A stretch of 64,000 bases of DNA from a virus (Duplodnaviria; Caudoviricetes): IMG/VR virus record IMGVR_UViG_3300028048_000055, positions 64,001 through 128,000 of that record; one strand, given 5' to 3'. The number at the start of each line of letters is the position of its first letter. The stretch's first letter is position 1. Of the stretch, positions 30,735 to 62,120 are shown piece after piece. Made by a program: the position numbers and the translations under genes. The notes under the pieces are model-generated. The model saw nothing but the letters and a program-made list of their open reading frames with translations, was not told the origin of the DNA and made no database searches.

Positions 30735-30735
30735 A

Positions 30736-31985: not shown

Positions 31986-32258
31986 ATGGTTAGAATTAAA
32001 ATGAATATAAAGCCTGGAAAGAAGGCAGAATTTGTACTTATCGATGATTCAGAAGTAACACCTGGACTTTCTGAACAATATACTCGATTTACACAGAATA
32101 AGGCTAACTTTGAACAAGCATGGAATAATACAGTCAGTTATAGTGAAGACTTAGCTGCAAAGACATTAGGTCATTGTCTTTATTCATGCGGTTTTAAAAT
32201 CGTTGATATTGATCCAGAGACACGAACTATAACATTGGATGTGATTAAAGATGAATGA
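31986..32258 (+). CDS. Hypothetical protein; N-terminus resembles the tail-sheath C-terminal strand
   Basis: IKMNIKPGKKAEFV versus sheath-type I.IKP....EF. Confidence 0.55.
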   Translation: MVRIKMNIKPGKKAEFVLIDDSEVTPGLSEQYTRFTQNKANFEQAWNNTVSYSEDLAAKTLGHCLYSCGFKIVDIDPETRTITLDVIKDE

Positions 32259-32408
32259 GATGGAAGTAGAATTTGAAGTATGTGATGGTGAACCTGAAAC
32301 ATTTAAGTTACCAGACGAACTGATTGAATTGTGTGAAATGGTTTATAAATGTGGGCAAGCAAATGTTGATTGTCATGTAAATGGCTATTATATTTCTGGG
32401 AATTAATT

Positions 32409-32819
32409 ATGGAACATTCTTTTACTTATGGCGGGATTCGCCTCAAGAAATTTTTTGATTGCAATAAGTATGGTAACTATGCCGGATTTGCAGAAGATAT
32501 TGAGAAAAGAATCAATATGTTTTTAAATTCTGTCAATGAAGCGGTTGACGAACATGGAAATATTTACTATCATTGTAATAAGTGTCATGCATGGAAACCG
32601 GTTTCTGAAATGTGTGATTTTGTTTATTTGACATATCCTGCACAATATGAATGTAAAGAATGTCATGAAGCAATTAATCAAACAATAAATCCAGAACCAG
32701 AAACTATTAAATGTTATATAGATCAATGTGTAACAGATGATAATAGTGTTCTATGCGGATATAAAGGTAAAACAAAGCTAGAATCTGGTGTAATTTATAT
32801 AAACAAAAATAAGGAGTAA
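32409..32819 (+). CDS. Zinc-finger protein ending in a T4 gp23-like major-capsid segment
   Basis: CNKC..CKEC; C-terminal KCYIDQ..VLCGYKG..ESGVIY. Confidence 0.6.
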   Translation: MEHSFTYGGIRLKKFFDCNKYGNYAGFAEDIEKRINMFLNSVNEAVDEHGNIYYHCNKCHAWKPVSEMCDFVYLTYPAQYECKECHEAINQTINPEPETIKCYIDQCVTDDNSVLCGYKGKTKLESGVIYINKNKE

Positions 32820-32822
32820 AAA

Positions 32823-33026
32823 ATGAAGTTCAAGGTAACATACACTGCTGTCAGAGAATTTGAAATTCCTGAAAATGCAACTGATGAAGAATACGATGCA
32901 ATGAAGGGCATTATCGTCGCCGCAATTGATGCGACAACTGTAACGCCGAACGATGTCAAGGTTGAAAGACTTGACGTTCCTGCAGAACCTCTTCCGGAAT
33001 ATAAAGTTAATAAGGATTGTGACTAA
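32823..33026 (+). CDS. Hypothetical protein
   Basis: AAGGAG RBS. Confidence 0.7.
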   Translation: MKFKVTYTAVREFEIPENATDEEYDAMKGIIVAAIDATTVTPNDVKVERLDVPAEPLPEYKVNKDCD

Positions 33027-33559
33027 TGACAATTACAGAAAAACACATTTTATTTTGGAGTGATTGGCCGAGCAATTTTGCTTGGGCTCCGATGAAGCTT
33101 AAGTGCTCTGATGATATTACCAGAGTTTTCTTTAGTTCTGAACAGTATTACATGCTCGAAAAGGCAATGTATTTTAATGATCTTACCATTGCTGATGCTA
33201 TTCTTCATCTTAAGTTTGATGATGAATATTCATATAATGCCAAGAAGCTCGGTCGTCGTGTAGCAAATTTTAACCAAGATAAGTGGAATGCAGTTTCTTA
33301 TGACATTATGCTTCGTGGTTGTCTTGCTAAGTATAGTCAGAATAAAATTCTGTTTGACAAGATTACTGACCCTGCTCTTAATGGTAAGAAGTTTGTAGAA
33401 GCTTCTCCTTATGATAAGATTTGGGGAATTGGCCTTGGTGAAGGTGATCCGCTCGCTGATGATGAATCTAACTGGCTTGGTGAAAATCGTCTTGGTAAGG
33501 TTCTTGACGAAGTTCGTCAGAAGTTGTTAGATGGCTATAAGGAAGAAATCAAGTATTAA
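33026..33559 (+). CDS. NADAR family (YbiA/DUF1768) ADP-ribosyl/N-glycosidase
   Basis: SNF, SSEQYYM.EKA, AKKLGR.V, KYSQN, VEASPYDKIWGIG, GENRLG. Confidence 0.95.
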   Translation: MTITEKHILFWSDWPSNFAWAPMKLKCSDDITRVFFSSEQYYMLEKAMYFNDLTIADAILHLKFDDEYSYNAKKLGRRVANFNQDKWNAVSYDIMLRGCLAKYSQNKILFDKITDPALNGKKFVEASPYDKIWGIGLGEGDPLADDESNWLGENRLGKVLDEVRQKLLDGYKEEIKY

Positions 33560-33561
33560 TT

Positions 33562-34032
33562 ATGATTGAATTTAAAGAAGAATATACTGATGAAATTCCC
33601 TATTCCATGGGGCGTTCTCAACTGACACAGAATCAGATTTGGGAAACTGAAGATCATGGTGGTTTTAAGAAAGTCATCATGAATGCGACAGTTACAAATC
33701 TTGAAAGATTTACAAAAGAATCTGTTAAGTCAGCTATTGCAGATTATCAAAAGCTAATCGACTCTAAACAAGCTATTGCTGTATTTAATCTCGGTTCAAA
33801 TTATGAAATTCCAATGTCTGAAATGTATGGAAGAGTAACTAAGGTTAATTTGCGAGAAAATAATCTTCTTGATGTTGAGATTGTTTTATTTGATACTCCT
33901 AATGGTAATATAGCTTATAGTGTATTAAAAGATACTTTTGGTGAAAATATTTATTTATCTGCAGAAGGGCTTTCTCTTAGTCTTCCTGGTGGTAGTAAAT
34001 TAACGCATCTTTTAAATTTTAAAATTATGTAA
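33562..34032 (+). CDS. Degenerate T4 gp21-like prohead protease paralog (probably inactive)
   Basis: MNATVTN..AIADY..KQAIAVFN and FDTPNGNI align with gp21; ELNHP histidine absent. Confidence 0.65.
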   Translation: MIEFKEEYTDEIPYSMGRSQLTQNQIWETEDHGGFKKVIMNATVTNLERFTKESVKSAIADYQKLIDSKQAIAVFNLGSNYEIPMSEMYGRVTKVNLRENNLLDVEIVLFDTPNGNIAYSVLKDTFGENIYLSAEGLSLSLPGGSKLTHLLNFKIM

Positions 34033-34040
34033 GGATTATT

Positions 34041-34334
34041 ATGGATAATCAGAATGATGAAGTATTTGCATTAGCAAAAGATGCAATGCTAACATGGGAA
34101 GAAATTTCTAAGGAAAATGAACCATGGTTTAAAGAAAAGGTAGTATTCCATTTGCCGCAGCCACATATGACTACTAAAGATGGTCTTGAGCTTAATGCTA
34201 TTACATATTTAAAAATTGATGGTCATATTATTCCTCAATATATGCATTTTGATCAGAATAAAGAACATACATTTATTGCGCTTTCACCAAATGTATCAGA
34301 ATATTTTAGAAACTTAATTAAAACGAAGTCTTAA
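34041..34334 (+). CDS. Hypothetical protein
   Basis: AAGGA RBS. Confidence 0.7.
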   Translation: MDNQNDEVFALAKDAMLTWEEISKENEPWFKEKVVFHLPQPHMTTKDGLELNAITYLKIDGHIIPQYMHFDQNKEHTFIALSPNVSEYFRNLIKTKS

Positions 34335-34335
34335 T

Positions 34336-35016
34336 ATGGAAATCACAAGAGAAATAGTCAAGAAGCTTAGAGAAGAAACTGGCACGCCTGGTTTAATGGT
34401 TTGTAAGCAAGCATTACAACAGTTTAATGGTAATTATGAAATGGCTGCAGCTTCTCTTAGAGCACATCGCTGGGCAACTCCATTAAGTGGCGTTGTATGG
34501 ACTGAACCTGATGAGGATAGAGTTGACTATCTTGGACTTGAAGATTTTAGAAGTTTCCATCAGTTCTTTTGGGATTATAGATATCGTTCAAGAATTGAAT
34601 TAAAACTTGATAAAGACGGTAAACCAGATTATAAAGCTTCTGATTGGCCTGAACGAATTTCAGATTATCGTGAACGTGTTCGTAAGGAAGAAGAACTTAA
34701 GGCCAGAGTTGATAGTTGGACTATTCCTACTATAGCTGATATTATTATGTCTAGCGTAAATCAGTTTATTAAAGGTATTAAGTTCGAAGACCAGTTCTTT
34801 ATATATAAGTTTACTAAACAGTATGCAAATGCTTCTGGTATATCATATTATAAGTATATAGTTGATCCAGTTCCACACGCTGATGAAAATAAGTATTTTG
34901 TTACTCTTAAGTTTCCAATGAAAGATTATATGGATTGGAATAAGATTTCATTTGATGGAACAAATTATACTTTTAATAATAAGTCTGTAAGTTTAGAAGC
35001 TTTAAAGGGAGAATAA
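34336..35016 (+). CDS. Protein with N-terminal EF-Ts-like (UBA) domain fused to an unknown domain
   Basis: MEITREIVKKLREETG..LMVCKQAL..NGNYEMA..LR. Confidence 0.7.
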   Translation: MEITREIVKKLREETGTPGLMVCKQALQQFNGNYEMAAASLRAHRWATPLSGVVWTEPDEDRVDYLGLEDFRSFHQFFWDYRYRSRIELKLDKDGKPDYKASDWPERISDYRERVRKEEELKARVDSWTIPTIADIIMSSVNQFIKGIKFEDQFFIYKFTKQYANASGISYYKYIVDPVPHADENKYFVTLKFPMKDYMDWNKISFDGTNYTFNNKSVSLEALKGE

Positions 35017-35424
35017 ATGGTTACACATCCAGTAAATCCAATGGGTACATTTAGATTTACATATGAAAATGGCATTCCATCAGATGTTGTTTATATGTAT
35101 AAAGTATATTGTTGTACTGATAATATTCCAGCAGAAGAAGATTTTGTTTCTATTTATACACCGGTTGAATATAGAGATATTCCAATGTATGTTTATGCAA
35201 AGGATAATTATATTCAGATAGATGTTAATTTTTCTGAAATGGAAAGACCAGTCTTGACACCAGAGCAGAAGAAAAGAATGGAAGAAGATAAAAAGACTAT
35301 AGCAAGAATTATCGGTGAAACTGATGATTATTATTCTGGTAAGATGTCATTTCCTGAAAGACTTTTGTATAAGTTTAAATTATGGAAAGCAAAATTATTT
35401 AATAAAGATGATTTAGGTTTTTAA
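35017..35424 (+). CDS. Hypothetical protein
   Basis: GGAG RBS. Confidence 0.7.
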   Translation: MVTHPVNPMGTFRFTYENGIPSDVVYMYKVYCCTDNIPAEEDFVSIYTPVEYRDIPMYVYAKDNYIQIDVNFSEMERPVLTPEQKKRMEEDKKTIARIIGETDDYYSGKMSFPERLLYKFKLWKAKLFNKDDLGF

Positions 35425-35434
35425 GGAGAATAAT

Positions 35435-35665
35435 ATGGCGGAAGAAAGAACAGTTATTCAAATTGATACTACTAAAATGACTCCTGCAGAAGCCAAAGAA
35501 TTGATGAATAATTTAAAGAAACAATTTTCTGTAAAGCTTTATTATGACGAAAATACTGGTGAAGTCATTAGAGCTGATAAACTTGGCGAAGGTGTCAAGT
35601 TTGAACATGATTATAAAGATGAAGCTAACGAAGATTTTCTGTTTTTAAAAAATGAATTTAAATAG
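35435..35665 (+). CDS. Stand-alone T4 gp20-like portal clip-region fragment
   Basis: AEERTVIQIDTTKM..KLYYDENTGEV..EDF aligns without gaps to gp20 APDRRVWYVDTGNM..VYDASTGKI..EDY; AAGGAG RBS. Confidence 0.72.
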   Translation: MAEERTVIQIDTTKMTPAEAKELMNNLKKQFSVKLYYDENTGEVIRADKLGEGVKFEHDYKDEANEDFLFLKNEFK

Positions 35666-35674
35666 GATTAATTT

Positions 35675-36339
35675 ATGAACAATACTCAGAAAGACAGATT
35701 TGAAAAGAAGCTTATTCGTTTTATCCGGGAACTTGATACTGAATGGAATAGATATCGGAAGCAAAATAATATAATTATGACATTTGATATGTGGGAAAAA
35801 CATAGAGATAAAGTCTATAAGAAATATGGTTTCACTGATGAAGAATGGAATAAAGCATCACGACTTATTCGTTCTAAATCATGGGCAGGAAAACGTTTAG
35901 AACAAAAGAAAATATTACGTGATAAAAATCGTGATATTTATAGAAGTGATATTGCTGATAATCCAAATGGCGAAGCAGAAATCAAAGCCGAAGACCGTTG
36001 GATTGCTGATGTGTTTGATACATATGATTATGATAAAGAGGATATGAGTAGATAATGACTGATATTCCAAAAAAGAATGAATGGTCAGAATGGTTTGATT
36101 GGCTTAAAGTCAATATCTATGACGAGATTTATGATGTTGTTCCTTGCGGAAACTGGGAAGAAATAGAGATAGAACTTAAATGTAAAGATGGTTCTATTAG
36201 AAAAGCCAGTATGTTTCCAAATGAAGAATATACTGACGATGATTATTGGAAATCATACGAATTACTCGGTGAACATGATTGGAATTGTAAAACAGATAAT
36301 GTCGTTGAATGGAGATATCTAAACGACTGGCAAGACTAA
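35675..36339 (+). CDS. Two hypothetical genes (35675-36055; 36055-36339 DUF551-like end)
   Basis: Coupled ORFs; VVEWRY C-terminus. Confidence 0.65.
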
Positions 36340-36369
36340 AAGAACTTAAAAAGAAAGCTTAGTATAATT

Positions 36370-36768
36370 ATGTATACTGGATATTTTGCAAAACTAAAAT
36401 CTTATGAAGAAGCTGGACTAGTTCCAGTCTCTATTGCTCTAAAGACACCAGATTGGTATCATGGTGCACAGTATAAAAAATTAGCACCTAAGTGGTCATT
36501 TTTTAGTGAATGGAAAAACGGTTCACATAAAGGTGATAATGATTATTATATGCAGCATTTTAAGACTGAAGTTCTTGATAATTTAGATCCAGAACAAGTT
36601 GTTAAAGAACTTGAAGGATTTACAGGTGTATCTCGGGATAGAATAATTTTAATATGTTATGAAAAACCTGGAGACTTTTGTCATCGTCATCTGGTTTCAA
36701 TGTGGTTAACAGTAAATCATATTAATTGTTTTGAACCGTCATATTTAACTCCAGTGGTTGACAAATAA
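36370..36768 (+). CDS. DUF488-family protein
   Basis: YTGYFA, YKKLAP, LICYEKPGDFCHRHLV. Confidence 0.8.
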   Translation: MYTGYFAKLKSYEEAGLVPVSIALKTPDWYHGAQYKKLAPKWSFFSEWKNGSHKGDNDYYMQHFKTEVLDNLDPEQVVKELEGFTGVSRDRIILICYEKPGDFCHRHLVSMWLTVNHINCFEPSYLTPVVDK

Positions 36769-36786
36769 ACTATTTTTTATTATATT
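36758..36786 (+). promoter_or_regulatory. Sigma70-like promoter TTGACA-N17-TATATT
   Basis: Canonical -35 and spacing. Confidence 0.85.
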
Positions 36787-36796
36787 TAATTAAAAT

Positions 36797-37105
36797 ATGA
36801 CCGCAGAAGAAGCAAGAAAGAATCGAATTCCGAAAGAAGACGAAGGAGTTGGCAAAACTAATATCGTTAATCTGTTAATCATGGATTATGTCAATAAAAT
36901 TGATGCTAAGATACAATCCGTAAGTCGATATACCAGTAGTCTTCTTTATCCCATATATGACCTGGAAGGTCGATATGATGTTTTGTCTAAGATTATGGAA
37001 GATTTTAGAAAAAACGGGTTTAATGTTGATTATAATGAAGTTTATTATGACAATGATTCAGCAGTAGGAGCTTATACACTTTTGTATATCTCTTGGCATA
37101 AGTAA
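36797..37105 (+). CDS. Hypothetical protein
   Basis: First ORF after promoter. Confidence 0.7.
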   Translation: MTAEEARKNRIPKEDEGVGKTNIVNLLIMDYVNKIDAKIQSVSRYTSSLLYPIYDLEGRYDVLSKIMEDFRKNGFNVDYNEVYYDNDSAVGAYTLLYISWHK

Positions 37106-37127
37106 GGATTTATAATAGAGGAATAAA

Positions 37128-37517
37128 ATGAGAAATAAGTTTACACCAGAATTTATTAACGACCTTGACGATAACGAAGTATTTGTTTTCGGCAGTAACA
37201 AGGAAGGTATGCACATTGGCGGTGCTGCACATTTTGCAATGCAGAGATTTGGTGCAGAATGGGGCAAGGGCGAAGGTCTCTATGGTCAGAGCTATGCTTT
37301 ACCGACTATGGACGATGATGATCCGAATTGTATTAAACCTTATGCTGATAGATTTATTCAGTTTGCTAAGGATCATAAGGAACTTACATTCTATGTCACT
37401 CCGGTTGGTTGTGGCATTGCTGGTTTTACACCTGAACAGATTGCACCATTCTTTAAAGATGCCCTTGATATGGATAATGTTATTCTTCCAGAAAGTTTTG
37501 TTGAGGTTTTAGGCTAG
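37128..37517 (+). CDS. A1S_2505-type phage protein (macrodomain-related)
   Basis: VFVFGSN.EG.H.GGAA, GQSYALPT, VTPVGCGIAG. Confidence 0.8.
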   Translation: MRNKFTPEFINDLDDNEVFVFGSNKEGMHIGGAAHFAMQRFGAEWGKGEGLYGQSYALPTMDDDDPNCIKPYADRFIQFAKDHKELTFYVTPVGCGIAGFTPEQIAPFFKDALDMDNVILPESFVEVLG

Positions 37518-40121
37518 TGGAATTTAAATTAAAACCGATAGCACTTAGATGTAATATGTGCTTCTGTCATTTTGAAAAGAAAAATGACGATTTTGAATAT
37601 ACTCAAGAAATTGTAGACAAGCGTTCAATGGGTAACGAAGTTTTACATTCTTGGGTTATTTCATATCAGGAATGTCCAAAATGTGGGAAGAAGTATTTTG
37701 TATCAATCGAACAATATGAATACCCAGAAGGTTGTTTAAATTGGAAAGAAACACAAACAGATAGAGTTTCTATTACAAATGATGTTGAAGTAGAGGAAAA
37801 TTAGTATGGCACAATATCATGTTGGTTGCGGAATGGCTGGAATTTATGCTGGCACTATCTCTAAGCCTGGAATGTGGAAAGTTAAGAATGATGTAACAAA
37901 TGAAGCACTTTGTGCAGTTGCTGATTATATGAAAGGTAAAATTACAGGCGATAATGATACTTATGAAATTACATGGAAGCTTCCAGATAAGGACATTATA
38001 TTATCTTTAACAGTCAAAAAGAAGAATGAGGAAAAATGATAGAACATAATGTTTTTATTGAATGTGCATTAAATGCCAAAGCATATTATCAAGCTTATCG
38101 TGGTTTGTGCAGGATGCGTATCATTTTCGCAAAAGCCCTAATAGAAAATTGGGAAGAAACATATGATCATCGTAGCACAAATTACGAGACCATGCAGCAC
38201 CAAGTTTTATTCTGGACCAACGTATATCAATATTGGGAAAAGAAACTCGAAGAATCTTATACTAGAGAAAAAGAATATCTGGGTGAATAATGACACAAGA
38301 AGAATTCAAAGAGCTTTGTAAAACATATCTTCCAAATTGTCATTTTAAAGATGGCAATACTTGTGGATTACTCTGCTATGATGGTGGAGACGATATTTTT
38401 AACATCATAGTTGCACTTCTACCGAGAGGTGAATTTGCAGTTTATGATAGGTGGCGTGAAATTACTGAAACATATGATATCGATTATGTAAAAGACTGGC
38501 TTGAACATTGTAGCTATAGGTATAAGAAATGACAGATAAAGAATTAATAGATGAACTAAAAATACTTGAAACATTTTATGTTTTATATAATAGACCGATT
38601 TTACCGTTTAACATATTAAAGAGTAATTATGACAGCGAACGGAGCAAAACGTAGTAGAATAATAGTAAACGAAATTGAAGAATGGCTTAAGGCTGAAAGG
38701 ATAATGCATGACTTTAGATGAAGCTATCCAACATTGCGAAGAAAGAGCATCCTGTGGCGATAAATGTGGTCTGGAACATAAACAGCTAGCTGAATGGTTA
38801 AAAGAGCTCAGAACATATCGTATGAGCGATAAACGATATGTTTTATCTGAAGATGATTATAAAACGATGTGTAAGTCTCCAAAGTTTGATGACCAGTTAT
38901 TTAGGTTGATTAATGACCTTGATGAAGAGATATTACCTGAAAATAGTAATAATTGCAGATATACTATAGAATATTCTGGAATAAGTAAAAGCGGCAATCG
39001 CTTTAATGGACGAAAATTTACAAATGATTTAAATGAAGCCAATAATAAGATGGATTTCTATATGGATAATGAGTATGTCGATATGGTTTCTATCCAAGAT
39101 GGCAAATATTCAATTAAATCTTTTACGAGGGGTTATGAATAATGGAACATGATTTAAACTTTTGGAAAAAACTTGTTACTGATATGGTTATTCTTTTAGG
39201 AAATGATCCATATATGGTAGCAACTGCCATAGAAGGTTGGGTCAAGAAAATGGCAGATACTGAAGATGAAAAACGATTACTTGAGCTTAATGATGATGTT
39301 ATGCATAGATTATTGTCTATTAAGCCGCATGAATGGAATGGATAATGAATAAATTATATCTTGTCAAACATACTGATATTGCATTAAAATCTGTTCAACG
39401 TGGTTTTACAGATACTTCCGATGTTTTTGAAAATCACACAAATCTTAGGATATTCAAAAAACGAAAGAAAGCAGAAAAATATATTACTGATTGGTATAAT
39501 AAATGGCCAGAACTTGGAACAGTAGTAAATGGCGGTGCTAGAATTAATGGTAAAAAAGAATTTGATGGTAATTCCGCAAAAGTTGAATATTGTTTATTTG
39601 GACCAAAACCTACACAAGTAGCAGAATTTTATACATTGGAAGAAATTGATTATGACAAATAAAGAATTACAAGAAAAGCTTGAAAAGTTTCCAGATGACA
39701 TAGAAGTATGGAATTTTCTCGCAGATGTAGATATTGAAGATGTATATGAAAAAAATCATTATAATTGTGGTGAATGGAAAACAGTTTTAATGATAGATTA
39801 GAGGAGTAAAATATGACACTTGAAGAATTTAAAGCAATAGTAAGAAAACATACACGTTTACCTTTGTCAAAGCTAGATGCATATGCAGAGGATGTATATA
39901 AGAATCCATGTTTTGAAGAATGGTTATGGGATGGAGAAGTTCCACAGATTGTAGCACTTCATGATTTGCATACTATTACTTTTCAGACTGGTAATAGATT
40001 GTTGGAAGCTCGAGAAAAAGTTCTTGAAAAAATGCCTATGGATAAGGCAAAGATATTTATCGAAAATAAACTTAATGATTTCTTAGAAAGAGTCAACCTT
40101 CAAAAGAAGAATTTATTATGA
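37517..40121 (+). CDS. Run of small hypothetical genes (zinc ribbon 37517-37804; 37806-38039; 38036-38290; 38290-38532; 38708-39142; 39142-39345; 39345-39662; 39813-40121)
   Basis: Translationally coupled small ORFs. Confidence 0.65.
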
Positions 40122-41350: not shown

Positions 41351-43475
41351 AAATGAATTATGCAGATTGGCTTAAAACCAAAGTAAAATATGACGGTAAG
41401 ACTAAATGTTTTGTCGACGGTTGCGATAAGCCAGGATTATATGAAATGGGTGATGTCAGATATTGGTGTGGTGGTTGTGAAGAACATGCCAATATGAAAA
41501 GAGAATATCAATGGTATCTTAACTCTAATACAAAAGATCCAGAAATTTGTGGAACATGGTAAAGGATAAATTAAACATGAATGAAATTCAGTTAGATGAA
41601 AATGAAGTTGAATTTTATAAAAGCGTACTAGCAGACATGATTCCATGGGATGATAAGAATTATGATAAAAAGCTAGACGAGATGGCAAGAGGCTGTTTAA
41701 AAGCTGAAAAAGATCCAGACTTCATAGCAATGTGTGAAGAACACGATAGAATGATGGAAGAAGAGCTAAGAAAATCTACATAAGTTGTGTATATTTTATC
41801 AGATATTTTTTATTAGGATTTAATTATTATAGATATTTTCTATATTTAATAATGGGATTGTTACAATGAAGTTAGTATCTATAAGATTTGAATCAGACAT
41901 TAGTCTAACTCAATATATTAATACTAATAAGATTGCAAAGCGAAATATACAAAGCATTCTTTTTAATACAGATTGGAATGGGTATGTCTTATTTTACTGG
42001 GAGAAATAATGATATCTAAAGATGAAGTAGAAGAACTTAAACTTATAGTAATTCATAGAGATTTATAATATGACAGAACCTTTATTATGTAGAACAGCAG
42101 ACGGTAAAATGCATTGGACTACTCAAGCTGCGGGTAGACGAGATTGCCGTGATTTTAAAACCTATTGTGGTCAACAAGTTGTTTCTGTTATCCATGAACC
42201 AATTACAGCAATGGGTTTTTATTTTAATCTTAATGACGAAGAAAAGAAACATATGAAGAATGTCGAAAAGATTATGGAAGACTGGAACGGTGAATTGTGT
42301 CAAAAATGTCAAAATAAAAGATATGAAGAAGAACGTATGGCTTGGGGTTTTTAATGAAAATAGAAAATAATGAAACTTGTTATAATATAGAACAAAGGAA
42401 CAAAAAATGAAATTTCGTAATGGTAGTGAATTGTTTCAAATGCATGGTGGGCATTTTACGATAATCCAGCTTTGGTTCGGACAACGGGTATTTGATATCA
42501 GTTACTACCCGCAACACACATTTCATTTCTGGTGTCATTCAAACGGCGCCATAAAAGGGAAAGACAATTGCCTTGACTTGAATTTATATATTCTTGGTTT
42601 TTTCTTTTCATATACTGATTACGGATATCATCGCTACAAAAAGGAAAATTATGACAGTAAAAGAATTACATAAAAAATTAGAAAAATATATTGACAAGGG
42701 TTTTGGTAATGTTGAATTAAAAACATCTGACCAAGGTGGAAATGATGGTGAAGTCTTAGGCGTTTATGACTATGATGATCCAAATGAAGATGATGGCAAG
42801 GTTGTAGTTATTGAGGTTGCATAATATGTTTGCTTATAAAGATATGCCAGAAGATATAAAAACGAAGATCAGTGAATTAAAACGAGAAAAACATTGTCTT
42901 GAATTTGATTTGACTTGTATGGGTATTATGAATTATGGTCCTATTATGAGACGATTAGACGAAGTTAATGCTGAACTTAAAAAACTGAAAGAAAAATATG
43001 AAAACGATTGATATATATGCTAATGGTCCAGAAATTACTTTTGAAACCATCGATGATTTAAAAGCAAATGAAAAGGTCAGAAAGACTTTATTTAATGACG
43101 ATGGTTCTATAAAAGATATCTTTATTTCAGAAAATCCATATACAAAGAAAAATCCGCTTAATCATAGATTTAGAAGAAAAAGGTGCCGGTGCAATAGAAT
43201 TAGACAAAGCAGTAAAAAAGTCTTTCGAAGATCTTTATATACCAATGGCCGAAAAGAAATAGTATACTATGATATAATGGAGAATAAATATGACAGTTGA
43301 AGAGATTAAAGCGAAAGGCTTAAAAGTATGGTATGTTAAAGATAAAAAATCTGGAAAATACGTTTCTGTTAAACGTGACGGTAGTTATGAATTTGTGGAC
43401 AATCCGTATATATTCTGCATGAGTTTAGAATGTTTACGTAACAGTTTAACAAAACCACATTTTTTTTTATTATAG
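41347..43475 (+). CDS. Run of small hypothetical genes
   Basis: Coupled ORFs 41347-41562, about 41556-41783, 42070-42354, 42407-42673, about 42651-42824, about 42826-43011, 42998-43300, 43290-43475. Confidence 0.55.
43168..43262 (+). repeat. About 90-bp diverged copy of 44504-44595
   Basis: ATTTAGAAGAAAAAGG.GC.GGTGCAATAGAATTAGACAAAGCAGTAAAAAAG shared. Confidence 0.9.
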
Positions 43476-43553
43476 CAGAGAAGATGGTAAAATAATTACT
43501 AATATAATAGCAACACCGATAATAAATGATATAGAAATTATAGAAGCATAATT

Positions 43554-43913
43554 ATGAGCGCAAATACCGAATTGTTAAACCATATTATCGATAATACATT
43601 AGTAAAAGACGTAAAATCGCCAGTTTATCGACCGATTTGTATTGCGTTATTAGCCAGAACCTATCAAGCTTGTAAAAATATAAGCTTTTCTAAGGATATA
43701 ACCCATGCGACAACAAATACGTTCGAAATCGATTTTTCTGACGCATATAAGTCGTCTGTCGATGACACTATGCCTGAAATTGTCGCAATATTGACTAAAA
43801 CATTGATTGATTTTTTCAAAGATAAGAAAGCGACTATACATTTCTGCAATTTTACGTTTTTCGATATTAATAAGAAACAATGTACACTCAGGGTGGATTA
43901 TACAGAAGAATGA
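43554..43913 (+). CDS. Hypothetical protein, paralog of 40118..40495
   Basis: See paralog. Confidence 0.8.
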   Translation: MSANTELLNHIIDNTLVKDVKSPVYRPICIALLARTYQACKNISFSKDITHATTNTFEIDFSDAYKSSVDDTMPEIVAILTKTLIDFFKDKKATIHFCNFTFFDINKKQCTLRVDYTEE

Positions 43914-44083
43914 CTCTAAAAGAAGTTGAAGAAAAAGTTCAAGAATATCAATGCATCCACTGCGGACAGTGCGAAAAAGACCTTCCGTGCCCGCAGGATT
44001 TAAAACGTTTCAAAATCTGGCAAGAATATTTCGATTCACTGGAGGAATCAAAATAACAATAGATTTAAAATAGGAATTGAATA

Positions 44084-44595
44084 ATGACATTAAAAGAACT
44101 TAAGAAGTTTATAAAGTCTATACCTAAGGAATATGATAATTGTGATATCAAGATGTTTCTTGATGAAGAACTAGGCTATGAAATGGACTTGGATAATCTT
44201 GTTGTCGTTCATAAGCCTAAGCTTGATCCAGCATATACTTATCCGTGTTGCATGTTTGATAAAGAAAAGAAAGAATTTGTATTTCTTGACGAAAAGGAAC
44301 TCCGTTTTATAAGAGATTTCGAAGTCGAAGAATACAAGAGGGCAAAGACTGAAGACTATAATCGTTATGGTTATGTAGAATCTTTTAAAGCGGAAGTTAA
44401 AGAATGACAGAAAAAGAATTGAAAAAGTATTCGTATGAAGAACTTTTAAAAATGTATTGGCAGTTAAAAACAGAAATGGAAAGAAGAGGACTGTATGAGA
44501 AGTATTTAGAAGAAAAAGGCGCTGGTGCAATAGAATTAGACAAAGCAGTAAAAAAGGCTTTAGAAGATCTTTGTATACCGATGACCAAAAAGTAA
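44084..44595 (+). CDS. Two hypothetical genes with MTxKEL N-termini (44084-44407, 44404-44595)
   Basis: Coupled ORFs. Confidence 0.7.
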
Positions 44596-44752
44596 TGATA
44601 CATTTAGAGGTGAACTATGCCAAAGAAACCTAAAATTAAAGAAGAATACCAATACAAATATGAAAGATGCATGAAGATAAGTGAACTTATTAAAGAACTT
44701 CAGGCAGTTAAAAAGATATGTTAATAATTGATTATTAAAATAAGGAATTAAT

Positions 44753-45232
44753 ATGGAATGGATTAAAATAGAAGACAGATTACCTGAAAAAGGTCAATAT
44801 GTTCTTGTTACATTTAAAAGCGGTTTCGACAATAGACCAAGTTATGGACTTGAAATTGCCGAATATTATGGTAATAATTCATGGGCATTAACTGACGGTG
44901 AATATGATGTTGCCGGACCTGTTATCGCATGGCAGGAATTGCCAAAACCTTATATTGATCCCGAATTTAAGGATGCTAAGTTTAATACAATAGATAATCA
45001 TTATTATCAAATGATAGTAGACGGAGAAGATAATTGGCCAGAAGATTATTATATGGTTCAATATACTGGCACAGATGACGATAATAAAACATTTATACAT
45101 AGAGATTATTATAGGACTGAAAAATTAGCATTGAATAGAGTAAGTGAACTTTATGATAATTGTAAAATTAAATATATTGCAGCTTATGCCTATGGTGGTA
45201 AAGAAATAAAAAGAATATCAAAACCGCAATAA
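44753..45232 (+). CDS. DUF551-domain protein
   Basis: MEWIKIEDRLPE..VLV..VIAWQELPKP. Confidence 0.75.
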   Translation: MEWIKIEDRLPEKGQYVLVTFKSGFDNRPSYGLEIAEYYGNNSWALTDGEYDVAGPVIAWQELPKPYIDPEFKDAKFNTIDNHYYQMIVDGEDNWPEDYYMVQYTGTDDDNKTFIHRDYYRTEKLALNRVSELYDNCKIKYIAAYAYGGKEIKRISKPQ

Positions 45233-45312
45233 CAAATATTTAGAAAAATTTACAAACTTAACCAAATTGGTTAAGTTTTTTCTATATTTAATACATATAA
45301 GCGAGAATTAAT

Positions 45313-46835
45313 ATGAGATTTCATGAATTAATCGGTTTAATCGACGATATTTTTACAAAATATAGAAAAGTAGAATGCACTCCGGATTCTGAATGGACTC
45401 CATATGTCTTCTATAAGAATCTGGATAATGTAAAAGAAGGTTATTCTGTCTATGTCGGTTCCAAGGGTTTAAAAGAAGAACTTGAGACTTTATTGCATCG
45501 TTGTGAAACAGAACAGAATTTTAAGTTCACAGATAAGCAATGGGAAACAATTTTCGGTTCATTAGAAACAGCGAATAACCAAGATAATGACGATGATGCT
45601 TGGACAGATATAATGTTCAGAGCTAAATATAATTTTATCGAATGGGTAATACAATATACTGGTGCTCAACATGCACATATGTATTAGGAAAACCAAAATG
45701 AATGATATACATGTCGTAATAACGCAAGATAAAAATGCACCATGTAATAGTTATACTGGTCTAGATTATTATTTCTTTGACAATGAAATTTTAGCATTAG
45801 ATTGGTTAAATGAGTATAAGAAAAATAATCCAGTAGGTCATTATTGTGAATATCAAAAGTGGAGTATAATAAAATTTGCTACTTGGGTTGCAAAAAGTAT
45901 AAAAGAATTACATTTACATAATAATATGAGGTGGTAATAAATGTGTAAATTTTGTGATTGTACAAAAGAAATAAAGCATAAAAGAAAGGATGGAACTGAA
46001 ATACATTATAGTTCCGAAGTAAAAGTAAATCATGCTGTTTGTATGTATGATTCAGATTCATATATAGAGAAAGAAAAAGAGTTTGAAAAAGATGAATTGG
46101 ATAACTGGTATGATTATACTAGCAAGAATTCTTCTAATGAAGGATTCTATATAGTAGATGGCGATATGCTTGGTTGTGCTCTTGAAGGTGGTTGTACTGC
46201 TACTGTCATGAAAATAAAGAATTGCCCGATTTGTAATAAAGAGCTTAAACATATTGAACCTAAATTTGTAAAAAATGAAGCGTAGAATAAGTTTTGGAAA
46301 TGCATGCCATTTTATACATATGATGGCTATGAAAGATTTAGATAAATATGATAAACCAAATGCTGTGGCATCTGTATTCTTTATGGATGATTATTATCAT
46401 TCTTTTAAAAAACTTACAAGTCCAGTAAAACATGTTGTATTATATGGCGAAGATTCTACCGAAGAAAAAGCACTTGATGCATTAACAAAACAACTTGAAG
46501 ACTTTCTTAAAGAACCTGTGCTTACAAATAGAAATTATTAAAGGTTAAATATGCGACATGTATTAAAATCTGTTGATCCATTATGGGAAGCTAGACTTGT
46601 AGAAGATATTGTCAGACATGGTAAAGGCGATATTGAAATAAGAGAGGATGAAAATGACCATTCTCCTATTGTATATAGTAAAAAAGCACAAAGAGGTATT
46701 CATCTGGAATCTATAGTTGAAGTATGGCCAGTTGATAGTATAGCAGAAAATATAATAGACCTTTTTAATAGTGCTATCGAAGCTGAAAACTATCTAGCAG
46801 GTCTTGATCATGTATTAGACGATTTAAAGGAATAA
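45313..46835 (+). CDS. Run of small hypothetical genes (45313-45687, 45698-45937, 45941-46285 zinc ribbon, 46275-46541, 46551-46835)
   Basis: ORFs downstream of promoter-like element at 45249-45288. Confidence 0.65.
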
Positions 46836-46840
46836 AAATT

Positions 46841-47215
46841 ATGCAAGGATTTGAAGTAAAATTACCAGATTCAGCAAAGACTTATCTTTTTGATATCAGT
46901 TTCTTCGATAAAGATAAAGGTGAGTGGAATGATGAACTTAAAGTTAGGGCCAAAAGAATTACAAATGAAAGGTTTATTCATTTTGACGAATTTACAGATT
47001 TCTATGTAAGTAAGTTCTTTGATGAACATCCGGACGGATTTTATTGTGATATAGTAATTAAATTCTATGATAATGAACTTAAAGAAGTTTGCTATCAAAA
47101 AGAATTTAAAAATCGTTGGCTTTATATTGAAGAAATTAATGATTTAAATCAATATGATGAGTGTAAGTTATTTCGTGTTGTCGATATAGAATATTCTAAA
47201 CGTAGACAATTTTAA
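46841..47215 (+). CDS. Shortened tail-tube (gp19-fold)-like paralog
   Basis: AKTYLFDI, L.VRAK, FDEF.DF.V, DIVIKFYD....V....F.N.W pattern with the long hairpin region missing. Confidence 0.45.
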   Translation: MQGFEVKLPDSAKTYLFDISFFDKDKGEWNDELKVRAKRITNERFIHFDEFTDFYVSKFFDEHPDGFYCDIVIKFYDNELKEVCYQKEFKNRWLYIEEINDLNQYDECKLFRVVDIEYSKRRQF

Positions 47216-47269
47216 TTAACCTAAACACTAATATAAATAGTATAAAAGTATAACAGATTGTGATTAATT

Positions 47270-47839
47270 ATGAAACGTAAATGTGTATTAGGTGTCTTGA
47301 AGACTGAAGCTGGTCTCGAGATTAAAAAAGAAATGTTAGAGTGGTTAGAACCGATTTATGATGTAACTTTGGTTGAAGTCGATCCGCCTAACGATAAAGA
47401 ATTTGAATTACCATTTATTAAAAAAGCTTGTGAAGTCTCTATAGAAAATAACGAACCTGTTTTATATTTGCATACAAAAGGTGCAGCAATGCCCAATAAT
47501 GCACAGCCAGTTGTTAGAGATTTCTGGAAGCATGAATTTACTGAAAAAGTTGACCAATATTTTAATGCAGTTAATGGCGACAAAGCCTTAGCTTCTGCTC
47601 CTATTGTAGGAAGTCAGAATCCTATTTGTTGGTTCAATGGTTTTGTCATGAATTCTTCTGCCGCAAAACAAATTTTAGAAAAACTATCCGTTCATGAAGA
47701 CAGATATTGGTTCGAACAACAAATGCTAAAAGAATCAAGTGTTTCTACATTTGGACTTTATGATTCTAATGCTGAAGATGGAAATCGTGCATGGCGTAGT
47801 TTCTGTTACTGGTATCAAACACAATATGGAGTAAAGTAA
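47270..47839 (+). CDS. Glycosyltransferase-like protein
   Basis: VLYLHTKG, WFNGF, RYWFE; late promoter at 47232. Confidence 0.55.
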   Translation: MKRKCVLGVLKTEAGLEIKKEMLEWLEPIYDVTLVEVDPPNDKEFELPFIKKACEVSIENNEPVLYLHTKGAAMPNNAQPVVRDFWKHEFTEKVDQYFNAVNGDKALASAPIVGSQNPICWFNGFVMNSSAAKQILEKLSVHEDRYWFEQQMLKESSVSTFGLYDSNAEDGNRAWRSFCYWYQTQYGVK

Positions 47840-48789
47840 TGTATTCTGATTTTATAGTAACAATGGCTACAATTCCTGAACGTTTTGAAATGCTTAAAAA
47901 GAATATATATAGTATTTTAAAACAAGAAGATGTAATATTTGATAAATTATTAATTGTTGTTAATAAATATAATTCTGAAGATATTTTAAAAAAATATGAT
48001 GAAATTAAAGCAATTTCACCAAAATATATTGATGTAGTTCTTGGTGATAATAAATGGAAAAGTTGCAATAAAGCAATTTATCCAATTTTACATAATCCAG
48101 ATAAAACATTTATTACAGTTGATGATGACATCAATTATTATCCACATGCATTATATGATTTATTAGAAATGCATGAAAAATATCCAAATTATATTATTAC
48201 ACATGAAACTAATCCAGTTCGTATAACAGATTTAGATTTTGTAGAATATTTTAATACATGGCAAACAAAATTTAAACAATGTTGTTATGATAAATATTTA
48301 ACTTGTTGTTGTTTATTTCCAGCACATACATTTGATAATACTGATGTTTTAAATTATGATAAAATGATAGAATTAACAAATGGCATGCATGATGAATTAT
48401 GGTTATGGGTTAATAGTACTATTAAAGGAATTAAATCTATTTGTTTAAATCATACATTGACATTTGTTTTAGATAATGTTATAACACAAGATAATAATGC
48501 ATTAGGTTCTATAAATGGTTTACCAGAAAAATTAATTGAATATAATTTAAAAATTAATGCTTTATATGGTAAGCAGCTTGCTCAAGTATTAAAATCAAAT
48601 ACTATAGATTTTATTGTAACTGAAAATAATTTTTATGGAATATTATGTATGATGAATCAACTTATTTCAATTTATAAAAATTATAAAAAAATGATATTTG
48701 ATGTATCAGCTTTGGCAAAAAGTTATCAAACAATATTTACAAATAATATACAACAATTTTCATCAATTTGTGAAGTAAAATATGAATGA
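47839..48789 (+). CDS. GT-A fold glycosyltransferase
   Basis: IVTMATIPER, ITVDDDINY, DELW. Confidence 0.75.
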   Translation: MYSDFIVTMATIPERFEMLKKNIYSILKQEDVIFDKLLIVVNKYNSEDILKKYDEIKAISPKYIDVVLGDNKWKSCNKAIYPILHNPDKTFITVDDDINYYPHALYDLLEMHEKYPNYIITHETNPVRITDLDFVEYFNTWQTKFKQCCYDKYLTCCCLFPAHTFDNTDVLNYDKMIELTNGMHDELWLWVNSTIKGIKSICLNHTLTFVLDNVITQDNNALGSINGLPEKLIEYNLKINALYGKQLAQVLKSNTIDFIVTENNFYGILCMMNQLISIYKNYKKMIFDVSALAKSYQTIFTNNIQQFSSICEVKYE

Positions 48790-49462
48790 TTTAGACGTAA
48801 TTGTTAGTTTAACTACTTGGAAAGGTAGAATAAATGATAAATCTGTTAGACAAGTATTATATCGTTTAGTTGCACAACAACAAACTCAATACAAATATAA
48901 AGTAGTATTAGTATTATCACGAGAAGAATTTGGCGATGATTTTGTTGTCCCGGAAGATTTACAATTATTTGAAACTACTGGCAGATTTGAAATTTTGTGG
49001 ACTTATGATAACACAAGAGCACTTAAAAAGTTAACTCCTACTATGGAGAAATATCCAGAATTACCAATTATTACATTAGATGATGATGAACTTGTTACTG
49101 AAGATTGTATTGAAAAAGTAATGCAAGAACATAGACAAAATCCAAATGTTATATTAGGTGGTTCAGTTCGTGCTGCATTTGGGGTTACTCTTGCATGTAT
49201 GATTAGATTATTTCCTCCACATAGTTTAAAACAAATTCCTATTGAATACTTTAAAACTTATTTTAATTGTATGCAAGATGATGAATGGAATGGTATTTGT
49301 GCAAGACTTAATGGAACATCTATGCAACAATTAAAAGCTCAAGTTGTAATAAATTATAATTTTGGTGATCAAAAAAATGCATTTAACTATATATATCGTA
49401 AATTTGATTATCAATCTGCTATAAATAAATTTTTTACAGAACATCCTGAGTATAATAAATAA
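48782..49462 (+). CDS. GT-A fold glycosyltransferase
   Basis: IVSLTTWKGRI, KKLTPT..YP..PIITLDDD, DDEW. Confidence 0.75.
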   Translation: MNDLDVIVSLTTWKGRINDKSVRQVLYRLVAQQQTQYKYKVVLVLSREEFGDDFVVPEDLQLFETTGRFEILWTYDNTRALKKLTPTMEKYPELPIITLDDDELVTEDCIEKVMQEHRQNPNVILGGSVRAAFGVTLACMIRLFPPHSLKQIPIEYFKTYFNCMQDDEWNGICARLNGTSMQQLKAQVVINYNFGDQKNAFNYIYRKFDYQSAINKFFTEHPEYNK

Positions 49463-49468
49463 AATAGT

Positions 49469-50821
49469 ATGAATTATCTAGCATCGCATCCAGCATTTAC
49501 AAATGGTAGTGCAAATATTGGAAGGTTCGATGGCATTACGGGTAAACTTCATGTTTTTAAAGCAATCGCGGTTCTTTATGGTGGATTGGCTTATTGGGAA
49601 TGTGAACAAGAATATGACGTCGAAGCACCTAACGACGATATCGTTCAGCAACTTTATCAAATGAAAAGACTCGTAGAGCATATTAAAGAAGAACCTATTG
49701 CAAAAGAAACGTAGAAAATGATTATTACTATTGGTGGAATTGCATTTGTAACATTTATTATATCATTTATACTATTTTTTATATTCGCAATTTGTTATGC
49801 TGTTACCAAAGATAAAGTAGCAAAATTTTTTGATACACTTTGTAATATTTTTGCAGTTATAGCTTGTATGGGTATTATTACTGCACCAATTTGTTTTTGT
49901 ATCGGTTCTGATGAACTCACAAAGCAACATCTTGAAGCTTTGAAAACAGGATGGCGAAGACAGGACATTGAAAATAAATGTTTGAATGATACTACTGATA
50001 CATGCAAATATAAATGGCATCAATATTGGGCAGATAGTATTAAGACTGAACTTGAAGTTAAGGCAATAGAAGCCAAGGAAGCAATAAAGTAATAAACAAG
50101 AGGAAAAACAATGATTAAAGTATGGCAAATGCATAAATTTAATAAGGTGAAAAAAGCAGTCGTTATGGAACCTATTGGTTCATGGGGCGATGAAGAAATG
50201 AAGTTTACCGATTACTTTCGTATTGAAGCTACAGTAGAAGAATACGATAATGATGTAAGTGTTAATGTCTATTGGCGAGAACCGGAACGTAATCATGATA
50301 TTGTTCCGTTTAATGTTCTTATTGATTTAGACCAGCATATTACTCATATGTATACGGGTAATCATAATGTTAGTGAAATGATAAAACTTGTTCGTACTGA
50401 TGCTATTGCTGCATATAAGCAATATATAAATGTAAAGGAAATTTTGATGACTTCACCTTATCTTGCAAGTTTTAATTGCACATCCTATAGCGGGTCTGGC
50501 CTTAACGTTCGTTTAAAGCCATACGATTTAGAACGTTATATTACAGCTGTAGCAGATGAAGATTCTTTTGCAAAGCGAGCAGTGAAAGAACATCCTAACG
50601 CTATTGCTGAATATAAGAAAAGTATCTTAAAGGAATTTAGTACTTGGACAACAGTAAATGCTGATGAGCCGAATCTTTTATTTGATACATTTAATACTTG
50701 GTATACAAATAAATATTTGCCGGAGCTTGAACTTGAAGCAAGAAATAAGGAATGTAAAGATACACTTGATGCAATCCAAAGACTCAAAGATGAAAGAGAA
50801 GCAAAAAAGAAATCTAATTAA
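49469..50821 (+). CDS. Three hypothetical genes (49469-49714; 49718-50092 membrane; 50111-50821)
   Basis: ORFs with plausible starts. Confidence 0.65.
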
Positions 50822-50824
50822 AAT

Positions 50825-50850
50825 AAAAGAGGTTTTAAAACCTCTTTTTA
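50825..50850. terminator. Bidirectional terminator
   Basis: AAAAGAGGTTTT/AAAACCTCTTTT palindrome between convergent genes. Confidence 0.75.
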
Positions 50851-51411
50851 TTTAAATTTTGCAAATATTGGTCGATTATCTTTTTCGTATCGTAAAATTA
50901 ATTTCATATTCTTGATACTGACAAGAGTCGGAAACCATGCTTTCATAAAGAAGTCATATTGCTCATCAGTCATATAATCAATTCCATTATAGATTACTAA
51001 ATGATATGAAGGGCCATGTATACATGCTTCAAGCATATCATTACATGAAATTTTTGAACCATTACTAAGTACTATGCAATAGTCATTTTCATATGTAACA
51101 GAAATAAAATTATCTTTCATTGCATTAAGACGATTTATTACATGTTTGACATAAGATTTTATTAAACCCATTTTTGACTCTACATGAATCGGTGCGCCGA
51201 AACATATATGTTTATTAGGATTTACTATCGCATACCAGATGGCATATAAATCTGTTTCATCACCATCGAGATACTTATTTTGAATTTTTACTGCAATGTG
51301 TTGCTTAGTCTGATATTCTCTAACCCATTCTTCTTGATATTTTGTTGGAATAATTCCGAAAAACTCAGTTATAAAATTTATCGGATCTGATAAGACATCG
51401 CTTAAATTCAT
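50848..51411 (-). CDS. Degenerate stand-alone terminase large subunit (gp17-like) ATPase domain lacking Walker A/B
   Basis: DP..F, YQ, IVLSNGSKI, IHGPSY.LVIY, FPTL..KLIL follow gp17 motif order; GKT and DE absent; GAGGTG RBS; CATAAATA upstream. Confidence 0.7.
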   Translation of the reverse strand: MNLSDVLSDPINFITEFFGIIPTKYQEEWVREYQTKQHIAVKIQNKYLDGDETDLYAIWYAIVNPNKHICFGAPIHVESKMGLIKSYVKHVINRLNAMKDNFISVTYENDYCIVLSNGSKISCNDMLEACIHGPSYHLVIYNGIDYMTDEQYDFFMKAWFPTLVSIKNMKLILRYEKDNRPIFAKFK

Positions 51412-62119: not shown

Positions 62120-62120
62120 T

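Follow-up and report, generated by a model that had tools for sequence, protein, structure and literature searches.

Diverged and cut-down copies of T4-type virion-assembly genes among the accessory genes of an uncultured huge phage

Paralogues of virion proteins in described phages

The closest described system is found in the phiKZ-like giant phages, where gp117 of SPN3US is a "cryptic", diverged and truncated paralogue of the prohead protease gp245 and is presumably inactive (PMC5694885). The locus analysed here resembles SPN3US in that a giant phage has, alongside its working protease, a shortened second protease-fold gene, with the catalytic His unaligned. gp117, however, aligns with the catalytic Ser and Asp, whereas the protease-like family of this locus has no invariant Ser in its C-terminal half. 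The lineage is also a separate one, with virion genes that belong to T4-type Pfam families, and its protease copy is accompanied by dead or cut-down copies of the terminase ATPase and the tail tube, together with pieces of portal and capsid proteins.

Phage T4 possesses a series of tube-fold paralogues, namely gp3, gp48 and gp54, and its gp24 is a paralogue of gp23 (gp24 and gp23: PMC5694885). These T4 proteins illustrate how capsid and tube folds are duplicated and then specialised, as is also the case here; they are, however, virion parts encoded in structural modules, whereas the copies described below are shorter, belong to an accessory region and are not known as virion parts. Look-alike proteins are also used by satellites, which interfere with the packaging of their helper phages by such means. 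A functional comparison is offered by DSAD1 of phage SPbeta, which suppresses DSR2, a sensor activated by the tail tube protein (PMC11263360). This is an outcome of the kind that the proposed decoys would bring about. To our knowledge, DSAD1 is not homologous to the tube protein.

Look-alikes of virion-assembly proteins in the window

The DNA analysed, termed the window, is a stretch of 64,000 nucleotides from a contig of 165 kb with 664 ORFs, which derives from an uncultured huge phage and is estimated by CheckV to be ~40% complete. A related phage of 291 kb, G001, served as the reference for full-length virion genes. A preliminary description of the window had singled out six small ORFs as look-alikes of virion-assembly proteins, with the protease-like ORF lacking the catalytic His motif, the terminase-like ORF lacking Walker A and B, the tube-like ORF shortened and the portal-like ORF partial. 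These four identifications hold, a fifth, to the capsid, is marginal, and the sixth, to the sheath, finds no support. The premise, that assembly proteins of the virion occur here as cut-down or catalytically inactive copies, was largely right. The features concerned are as follows.

31986 to 32258, plus strand: P0006, a conserved ORF of 90 aa, the sheath candidate, excluded from the set
32409 to 32819, plus strand: P0004, a CxxC...CxxC zinc-ribbon protein of 136 aa with a marginal capsid-like C-terminal tail at ~32655 to 32798
33562 to 34032, plus strand: P0002, a paralogue of the T4-type prohead protease, 156 aa, predicted from its residues to be catalytically dead
35435 to 35665, plus strand: P0001, a T4-type portal segment in a small ORF of 76 aa, residues 2-47 of which are encoded by 35438 to 35575
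46841 to 47215, plus strand: P0005, a shortened tail-tube/Hcp-fold paralogue of 124 aa
50825 to 50848, both strands: a bidirectional terminator-like hairpin with a 10-bp stem and T runs on both strands
50848 to 51411, minus strand: P0003, a paralogue of the terminase large-subunit ATPase domain, 187 aa, without Walker A/B, the Arg finger or the nuclease domain

Structure models were obtained for the protease-like protein (pLDDT 62) and the tube-like protein (pLDDT 58, built from two sequences), both of low confidence. In a Foldseek search with the protease-like model, T4 gp21 (5jbl_A) ranked first with a probability of 0.95, and comparison of the model with 5jbl_A by VIA gave a Z of 8.0 and an rmsd of 3.7 for 118 residues across the whole model, the next chain scoring 5.4. 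The protein alone matches no Pfam family, but it is 28% identical to the Peptidase_S77 protease of G001 by BLASTP (E=7e-7) and was recovered in the all-ORF phmmer screen against that phage (9.3e-7). The catalytic His85 of gp21 corresponds to Leu77 here and to Met in a clade of 42% identity, and no His is invariant among 17 sequences of the family. Nor is any Ser invariant in the C-terminal half, where Ser133 is replaced by Lys in the 42% clade, in a region without residue-level alignment to gp21. The family comprises 20 intact members of 42-100% identity in which the non-catalytic motifs are invariant, and its dN/dS is ~0.27.

The terminase-like protein is homologous to the product of a Terminase_6N gene on the same contig (E=3e-9, 25% identity) and to two terminase copies of G001 (E=5e-13 and 4e-9), and all six of the more distant library matches tested were Terminase_6N proteins of 24-30% identity. 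A phmmer search of PDB sequences returned nothing useful for this protein or for the portal-like one. The motifs of ATP hydrolysis have been replaced: Walker A, RQSGK(T/S), by NKYLDG; Walker B, hhhhD(E/D), by LVIYNG; and the RG of the Arg finger by HG. The protein, of 187 aa, ends with the ATPase core and has no C-terminal nuclease domain. A 48% homologue of 189 aa (P0030) exhibits the same motif losses and, like the copy in the window, is inverted with respect to its neighbours. The hairpin at 50825 to 50848 separates the terminase-like gene from the convergent gene at 50111-50821 on the plus strand.

The tube-like protein has a homologue of 42% identity in G001, which in turn matches the G001 tube gene (E=5e-5) with ~25 internal residues absent; the segment missing from the family may be the inter-subunit hairpin. 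In a fold search with the model, the best 46 of 48,161 chains were nearly all tube, Hcp or injection-system tube proteins, with Z from 7.9 to 4.8. Because absolute Z values are below 8, assignment to the tube/Hcp fold rests on the consistency of the hit list. Foldseek alone returned nothing significant (best E=0.09), a language-model atlas yielded no usable match, and a scan of metagenome loci found zero relatives of the protein.

The portal-like protein is the only match to Portal_T4 on the contig and scores above the Pfam cut-off (E=1.1e-8; 34.8 bits against 22.9), with residues 2-47 aligned to model positions 203-248 of 433, so that a segment of 45 of the 433 positions is covered. It also matches the PHROG portal family (9.5e-8) and residues 279-321 of T4 gp20 (BLASTP, E=2e-5, 30% identity). 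A complete portal has a wing, stem, clip and crown, which this ORF does not encode in full; that of G001 has 538 aa. The protein had zero matches among 50,697 GenBank phages, as did a nucleotide search of 31986-38000 against the same phages, and its only relatives found are near-identical. Searches against longer proteins and IMG/VR also gave zero matches, and no catalogued portal can therefore be its recent source. In sister strains the N-terminal, portal-like half is deleted in frame at a microhomology, and comparison of the gene and its upstream neighbour with these strains gives a dN/dS of ~0.6-1.1 from few substitutions. The portal piece looks dispensable.

The preliminary description placed a capsid segment at the end of the zinc-ribbon ORF. 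A pairwise comparison points the same way (G001 capsid protein residues 324-381, E=3e-5, 34% identity), but the tail falls short of the Pfam cut-off for Gp23 (E=0.05; 13.4 bits against 24.4) and lies at the noise boundary of the all-ORF BLAST screen (E=0.001), and hhalign of the family with T4 gp23 gave no support. The four Cys are invariant in homologues of 37-40% identity, the capsid-like motif is only partly kept in the 37% homologue, and dN/dS is 0.23. Sheath-like strands had been proposed for the ORF at 31986-32258, which is conserved in relatives with a dN/dS of 0.28. It matches no Pfam or PHROG family and does not match T4 gp18, and nothing below E=2 was found among G001 structural proteins. 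The ORF was left out of the set because the sheath likeness found no support. Compared directly with T4 proteins by BLASTP, the protease, capsid-tail, tube and sheath candidates gave uninformative results, and a signal emerged only with the closer relative G001.

Gene context and full-length counterparts

As the preliminary description stated, the set lies outside any structural module, among NADAR, Thg1 and DUF488 genes. None of the 42 other ORFs of the region matches a head or packaging PHROG, and a phmmer comparison of all 664 contig ORFs with 43 ORFs of the G001 structural region gave only five hits, two of which are the protease and terminase copies. In G001, a T4-type module at 137-156 kb contains portal, tube, capsid, S77 protease (Pfam, 4e-34) and TerL-N genes, all full. 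Homologues of the protease-like, zinc-ribbon and tube-like mini-genes lie at 237.9-244.4 kb, ~90 kb from that module, and are likewise surrounded by small accessory ORFs.

Full-length genes elsewhere in the genome had been named as a check; they are present in G001 but were not found on the 165-kb contig for portal, capsid or protease. As the contig is incomplete (CheckV, ~40%), the phage's own full-length genes are unseen, and the description of a mini-gene as a paralogue of the phage's own gene therefore leans on G001. Pfam and PHROG matches of the large contig ORFs were uninformative. No credible Terminase_6C match was found for a terminase nuclease gene on the contig; a weak one in a 531-aa ORF at contig positions 133599-135194 was discarded. 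A group I intron was sought after the TerL-N gene (contig 38140-39156), and only tRNAs were found.

Decay of duplicated genes had been named as a refuting outcome, and the members of the set differ in this respect. In relatives, at 42-48% identity, the copies of protease, terminase and tube remain intact and are therefore retained genes, not debris, whereas the portal piece shows relaxed constraint and is half-deleted in sister strains. The protease-like, zinc-ribbon and 31986 genes have dN/dS values of 0.23-0.28, and constraint is tighter in the adjoining NADAR and DUF488 genes, at 0.06-0.08. The genes of the set are spread over 19 kb, relatives differ in which of them they carry, and the copies are 23-30% identical to the real virion proteins. 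Most had also been placed downstream of sigma70-type promoters; this was not confirmed, as promoter-like sites occur at the level of chance (53 against 55.6 expected; 84 against 79.9 expected).

The presence of dead or cut-down protease, ATPase and tube copies, together with portal and capsid pieces, among accessory genes is real and unusual. The data do not show these genes working together as one system. The 19-kb scatter, the differing distributions, the loss of the portal-like half and its relaxed constraint, and the fact that the anti-Avs and anti-DSR2 proteins named in the publications found do not copy their triggers argue against it.

Possible roles of the mini-genes

The mini-genes are probably diverged paralogues of the lineage's T4-type virion genes that have been retained as stand-alone accessory genes after losing the parts for catalysis or polymerisation, with a binding-only role as their putative function. 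Virion genes would have been duplicated and would have diverged, and the small copies would have settled in the accessory region and shed catalytic or polymerisation elements while retaining the fold. Since the chemistry is lost and the fold kept, such copies may act as binding-only pseudo-subunits, whose putative partners would be whatever the real proteins bind: the prohead core, the portal, the terminase, neighbours in the tube, or host proteins by which the fold is recognised. More probably, the same events of duplication and recombination left the portal piece, and perhaps the capsid-like tail, behind as remnants.

That the copies contribute to assembly of the phage's own virions, as minor parts or as regulators, is possible, though we hold it only tentatively. 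Examples would be a tube-fold protein that starts or ends the tube or belongs to the baseplate, a protease-fold component of the prohead core and an ATPase-dead packaging accessory. The precedent of T4 paralogues (gp24 of gp23; tube-fold gp3, gp48 and gp54) is in keeping with such a role, as are purifying selection and the conservation seen between homologues of 42-48% identity. The heads of giant phages also contain paralogue families that have expanded, and gp117 is itself related in this way to a protease (PMC5694885). In G001, however, a distance of ~90 kb separates the copies from the structural module, their neighbours are small accessory ORFs, and presence in relatives is patchy. It is rather unlikely that the genes as a whole are decaying remnants of duplication and recombination without present function. 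The portal piece fits such an origin, with its near-identical relatives only, its microhomology deletion and its dN/dS of 0.6-1.1, as do the short, marginal capsid tail and a remnant-like 45-codon ORF in L022 that holds the C-terminal motif only. The protease, terminase and tube copies do not: they are unbroken and keep their motifs down to 42-48% identity. In addition, a terminator-like hairpin lies at the 3' end of the terminase copy, and the inverted orientation of this copy is kept in a relative.

Two further explanations would direct the copies at other players. Candidate mimics made before the virion proteins could occupy host immune sensors without activating them, with Avs paired to terminase or portal, DSR2 to tail tube, CapRel or Lit to capsid and CBASS to protease. 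The copied classes are known defence triggers (PMC13581612; PMC11263360; 10.64898/2026.03.04.709575), activity has been lost with the fold kept, and the neighbours are NADAR, Thg1 and DUF488 genes. We nevertheless regard immune decoys as unlikely: promoter-like sites are at chance level, the copies are only 23-30% identical to the real proteins, and the anti-Avs and anti-DSR2 proteins named in the publications found are not homologues of the triggers. Alternatively, the copies could be weapons with a dominant-negative effect on related phages or satellites in the same cell, capping tubes, blocking the portal clip or poisoning the terminase ring. Polymerisation or catalytic elements have been truncated away with the fold intact, and satellites disturb helper packaging with look-alike proteins, but the phage's own assembly would be expected to suffer too, which makes such weapons very unlikely. 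A broader proposal, that huge T4-type phages keep a recurrent toolkit of binding-only mimics of their virion proteins, namely protease, terminase ATPase and tube together with portal and capsid pieces, that blunt host sensors or sabotage the assembly of rivals, is distinctly improbable; if it were true, it would define a general class of trigger-mimic counter-defence.

The retention of these paralogues bears on annotation as well as on biology. In genomes of this kind, a match to portal, terminase or capsid may come from a mini-paralogue instead of the working gene, and caution is warranted when it is annotated. Many bacterial immune sensors respond to conserved virion proteins, and the dead copies described here are concrete candidates for counter-defence by trigger mimicry. 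If mimicry is wrong, retained pseudo-subunits of the protease, the packaging ATPase and the tube would suggest that virion assembly in huge phages is regulated in ways so far unrecognised.

The mini-gene region and its relatives

The source contig, an IMG/VR record of which the window covers bases 64001-128000 (165,061 bp; ~31% G+C; CheckV completeness estimate ~40%), carries ~50 small, densely packed ORFs on the same strand at 31-52 kb of the window, the sole minus-strand gene of this block being a terminase copy. Small paralogues or pieces of T4-type virion proteins (mini-genes) had been placed here among NADAR, Thg1 and DUF488 genes, and all three gene identities were confirmed.

Mini-genes and confirmed neighbouring genes (window positions)
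30724-31542: Thg1
32409-32819: zinc-ribbon protein with four invariant Cys and a probable capsid-like tail
33026-33559: NADAR
33562-34032: protease copy, 156 aa
35435-35665: portal piece, 76 aa, residues 2-47 portal-like
36370-36768: DUF488
46841-47215: tube copy, 124 aa
50848-51411, minus strand: terminase copy, 187 aa

GenBank phages gave no match to 31986-38000 as nucleotides or to the portal piece as protein. Syntenic relatives are present in metagenome assemblies at ~80-98% (L004-L007) and ~40% (L022 and L023) protein identity, and the contig is also related to the viral contig G001 (IMGVR_UViG_3300018430_000021 of IMG/VR; 291,102 bp, ~70% complete), which contains a full T4-type morphogenesis module.

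Genes of the G001 morphogenesis module (137-156 kb)
Portal: 538 aa, Portal_T4 E=6.7e-77
Tube gene: gp19-like
Capsid protein: Gp23 E=3.5e-70
Protease: Peptidase_S77 E=4e-34
Terminase ATPase gene: Terminase_6N

At 237.9-244.4 kb G001 also has homologues of three mini-genes (protease-like, zinc-ribbon and tube-like), and its second Terminase_6N gene is found at 258.6 kb. Given that the module and the mini-gene homologues occur in one genome, T4-type virion proteins are the ones in use in this lineage, the mini-genes being, on sequence comparison, additional copies rather than the working genes. The full-length counterparts that the preliminary description would have confirmed elsewhere in the genome were located in this relative, which also has the three mini-gene homologues.

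None of the 42 other ORFs of the region had a head or packaging PHROG match, and an open phmmer screen yielded five matches in total, among them the protease copy and the terminase copy. Four items of the set (protease, terminase, tube and portal) exceed what chance would give. Two further proposals failed: sheath-like strands at 31986-32258 were unsupported in every test run, and sigma70-like sites were no commoner than in shuffled sequence.

Other genes in the window include an MFS transporter encoded on the minus strand (21935-23080), an SLT transglycosylase (23240-24142), a GH10 glycosyl hydrolase (27758-29542, E=1e-51) and two neighbouring glycosyltransferase family 2-like genes (47839-49462), the second with three G001 homologues. 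An RNA-repair-like set comprises a PolyA_pol-family nucleotidyltransferase of the CCA-adding or poly(A) polymerase type, a T4-type RNA ligase and Thg1, listed along with an M16 peptidase (55154-56419, 57566-58714, 30724-31542 and 62019-63245, respectively). The same phage contig also encodes an IS605 OrfB/TnpB-like gene with a Cas12f-like TNB domain (L012:193-1521, minus strand), a GIY-YIG homing endonuclease (L017:2998-4461) and a full-length M18 aminopeptidase (contig 136087-137436, L016:8087-9436; E=4e-82).

Protease, tube and terminase copies

Sequence families by themselves are weak for the protease copy, the PHROG head-maturation protease family matching with E=0.12 only, but a number of independent results concur. 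Its neighbours in a language-model search were Peptidase_S77, DUF2213 and YonD_N clusters. Of the 350,542 chains compared by Foldseek with a structure model built on 17 homologues (pLDDT 62), T4 gp21 ranked first and a herpesvirus protease came next; with VIA, gp21 scored Z 8.0 over 118 residues and the next chain 5.4. The copy is also recovered by the open phmmer screen and shares 28% identity with the true G001 protease (BLASTP, E=7e-7). In the gp21 and G001 alignments, the catalytic His of 'LNHP' aligns with 'FNLG' (Leu77), which bears out the description of a prohead-protease-like protein whose catalytic His is gone. A distant clade of the family has Met at this position, and no invariant His was found in the family. 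Intact members range from 42 to 100% identity and share strongly conserved non-catalytic motifs (EDxGGFKKV, FTKESV and DTPNGN among them), and dN/dS is 0.27 against the L004 relative.

The tube copy has no family matches in Pfam, PHROG or a language-model search. Its 42% homologue in G001 is related to the G001 tube gene (E=5e-5; KxYLF, ELMLxAK and FDEFxDxxVS common to both) and lacks ~25 residues of it. A low-confidence model of the tube copy (pLDDT 58) was compared with 48,161 representative chains, and the top 46 were nearly all tail-tube, Hcp or contractile-injection tube proteins (Z 7.9-4.8). The fold call relies on this consistent match list and the sequence link to the tube gene, not on absolute Z, and agrees with the proposed shortened tail tube. 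The missing segment would be the inter-subunit hairpin.

The terminase copy is 25% identical (E=3e-9) to the contig's own Terminase_6N gene and aligns with both Terminase_6N copies of G001; the more distant matches tested from a 1.84-billion-protein library were likewise Terminase_6N proteins (six of six, 24-30% identity). In a multiple alignment, NKYLDG stands in place of Walker A RQSGKT/S, LVIYNG in place of Walker B and HG in place of the RG finger, as expected for the terminase ATPase domain without Walker motifs previously described. A 48% homologue (P0030, 189 aa) has identical motif losses. The 187-aa copy has no nuclease domain, its inverted orientation is kept in a relative, and a bidirectional terminator-like hairpin lies at its 3' end.

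The contig's Terminase_6N gene (contig 38140-39156, L012:8140-9156; 338 aa) has intact Walker A and B; no nuclease domain adjoins it, small ORFs and a Metallophos phosphoesterase coming next. It is slightly closer to the second G001 copy (E=1e-18) than to the module copy (E=7e-16), and may be another paralogue rather than the working terminase. The second G001 gene (L030:1285-2076; 263 aa) has Walker A RQSGKT changed to RQCGIT (Lys to Ile) and retains Walker B with DD, and reads as an intermediate state of terminase-ATPase decay.

Portal-derived and probable capsid-derived pieces

Residues 2-47 of the portal piece match Portal_T4 above the curated cut-off and also T4 gp20 residues 279-321, so that the suggested resemblance to part of a portal is true homology. 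This segment probably corresponds to the part of the portal where the stem helix enters the clip. Terminase docks at the portal clip (PMC9958956). The piece is no nearer to the G001 portal (23% identity) than to the T4 portal, and the sole homologues found are 95-97% identical to it. In sister strains, a microhomology deletion of ~255 bp (window 35017-35665 against L004:10001-10393 and L005:2727-3119) between the similar short words GAAGA.AAAA.ACT and GACGAAAATACT removes the portal-like half, and the last 37 codons of the ORF are fused in frame to the upstream 135-aa gene to give a 130-aa protein (9 contigs). The distant relative L022 retains a 45-codon remnant with the C-terminal motif alone, and across the deletion locus dN/dS against sister strains is ~0.6-1.1 from few substitutions. 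The portal piece is probably dispensable. Its C-terminal half (35531-35659) has a weak likeness, without significance (39% over 44 residues, E=0.17), to the start of a 127-aa ORF (G001 138701-139084) directly downstream of the G001 portal gene, which may be a hint of derivation from a collapsed portal locus.

The last ~50 residues of the zinc-ribbon protein are Gp23-like (Pfam E=0.05) and match residues 324-381 of the G001 capsid protein pairwise (E=3e-5). An open BLAST screen that took in 664 ORFs placed this tail (E=0.001) amid obvious noise, and hhalign gave no match; the capsid segment claimed here is probable but falls short of proof. The whole gene is under purifying selection (dN/dS 0.23). 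The same BLAST screen found a 196-aa ORF outside the window (contig 37500-38090, L012:7500-8090), with the 338-aa Terminase_6N gene immediately downstream. This ORF aligns with residues 279-426 of the G001 capsid protein (E=5e-8 in pairwise comparison, 2e-5 genome-wide). Over residues 85-195 it is 27% identical to the C-terminal third of that protein, with AN..V and NYYRL motifs present and internal deletions. No orthologue was found in G001. Judged by these matches, it is a further capsid-derived mini-gene.

Possible roles of the mini-genes

The mini-genes descend from virion proteins by fold or sequence, have lost catalytic or polymerisation elements and coexist with real virion genes in G001, and three of them are kept across deep divergence. 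A literature search found no published multi-protein set of this kind. SPN3US gp117 of the giant phages, a truncated and presumably inactive prohead-protease paralogue, is a precedent for one element of the set (PMC5694885).

The anatomy is compatible with candidate mimics that would act as immune decoys, occupying Avs, DSR2, CapRel or CBASS sensors of virion proteins without activating them. This reading has difficulties: among the papers located, none of the named anti-Avs or anti-DSR2 proteins is homologous to a trigger. It is at least as likely that the mini-genes serve the phage's own assembly. The mini-genes would act through binding alone.
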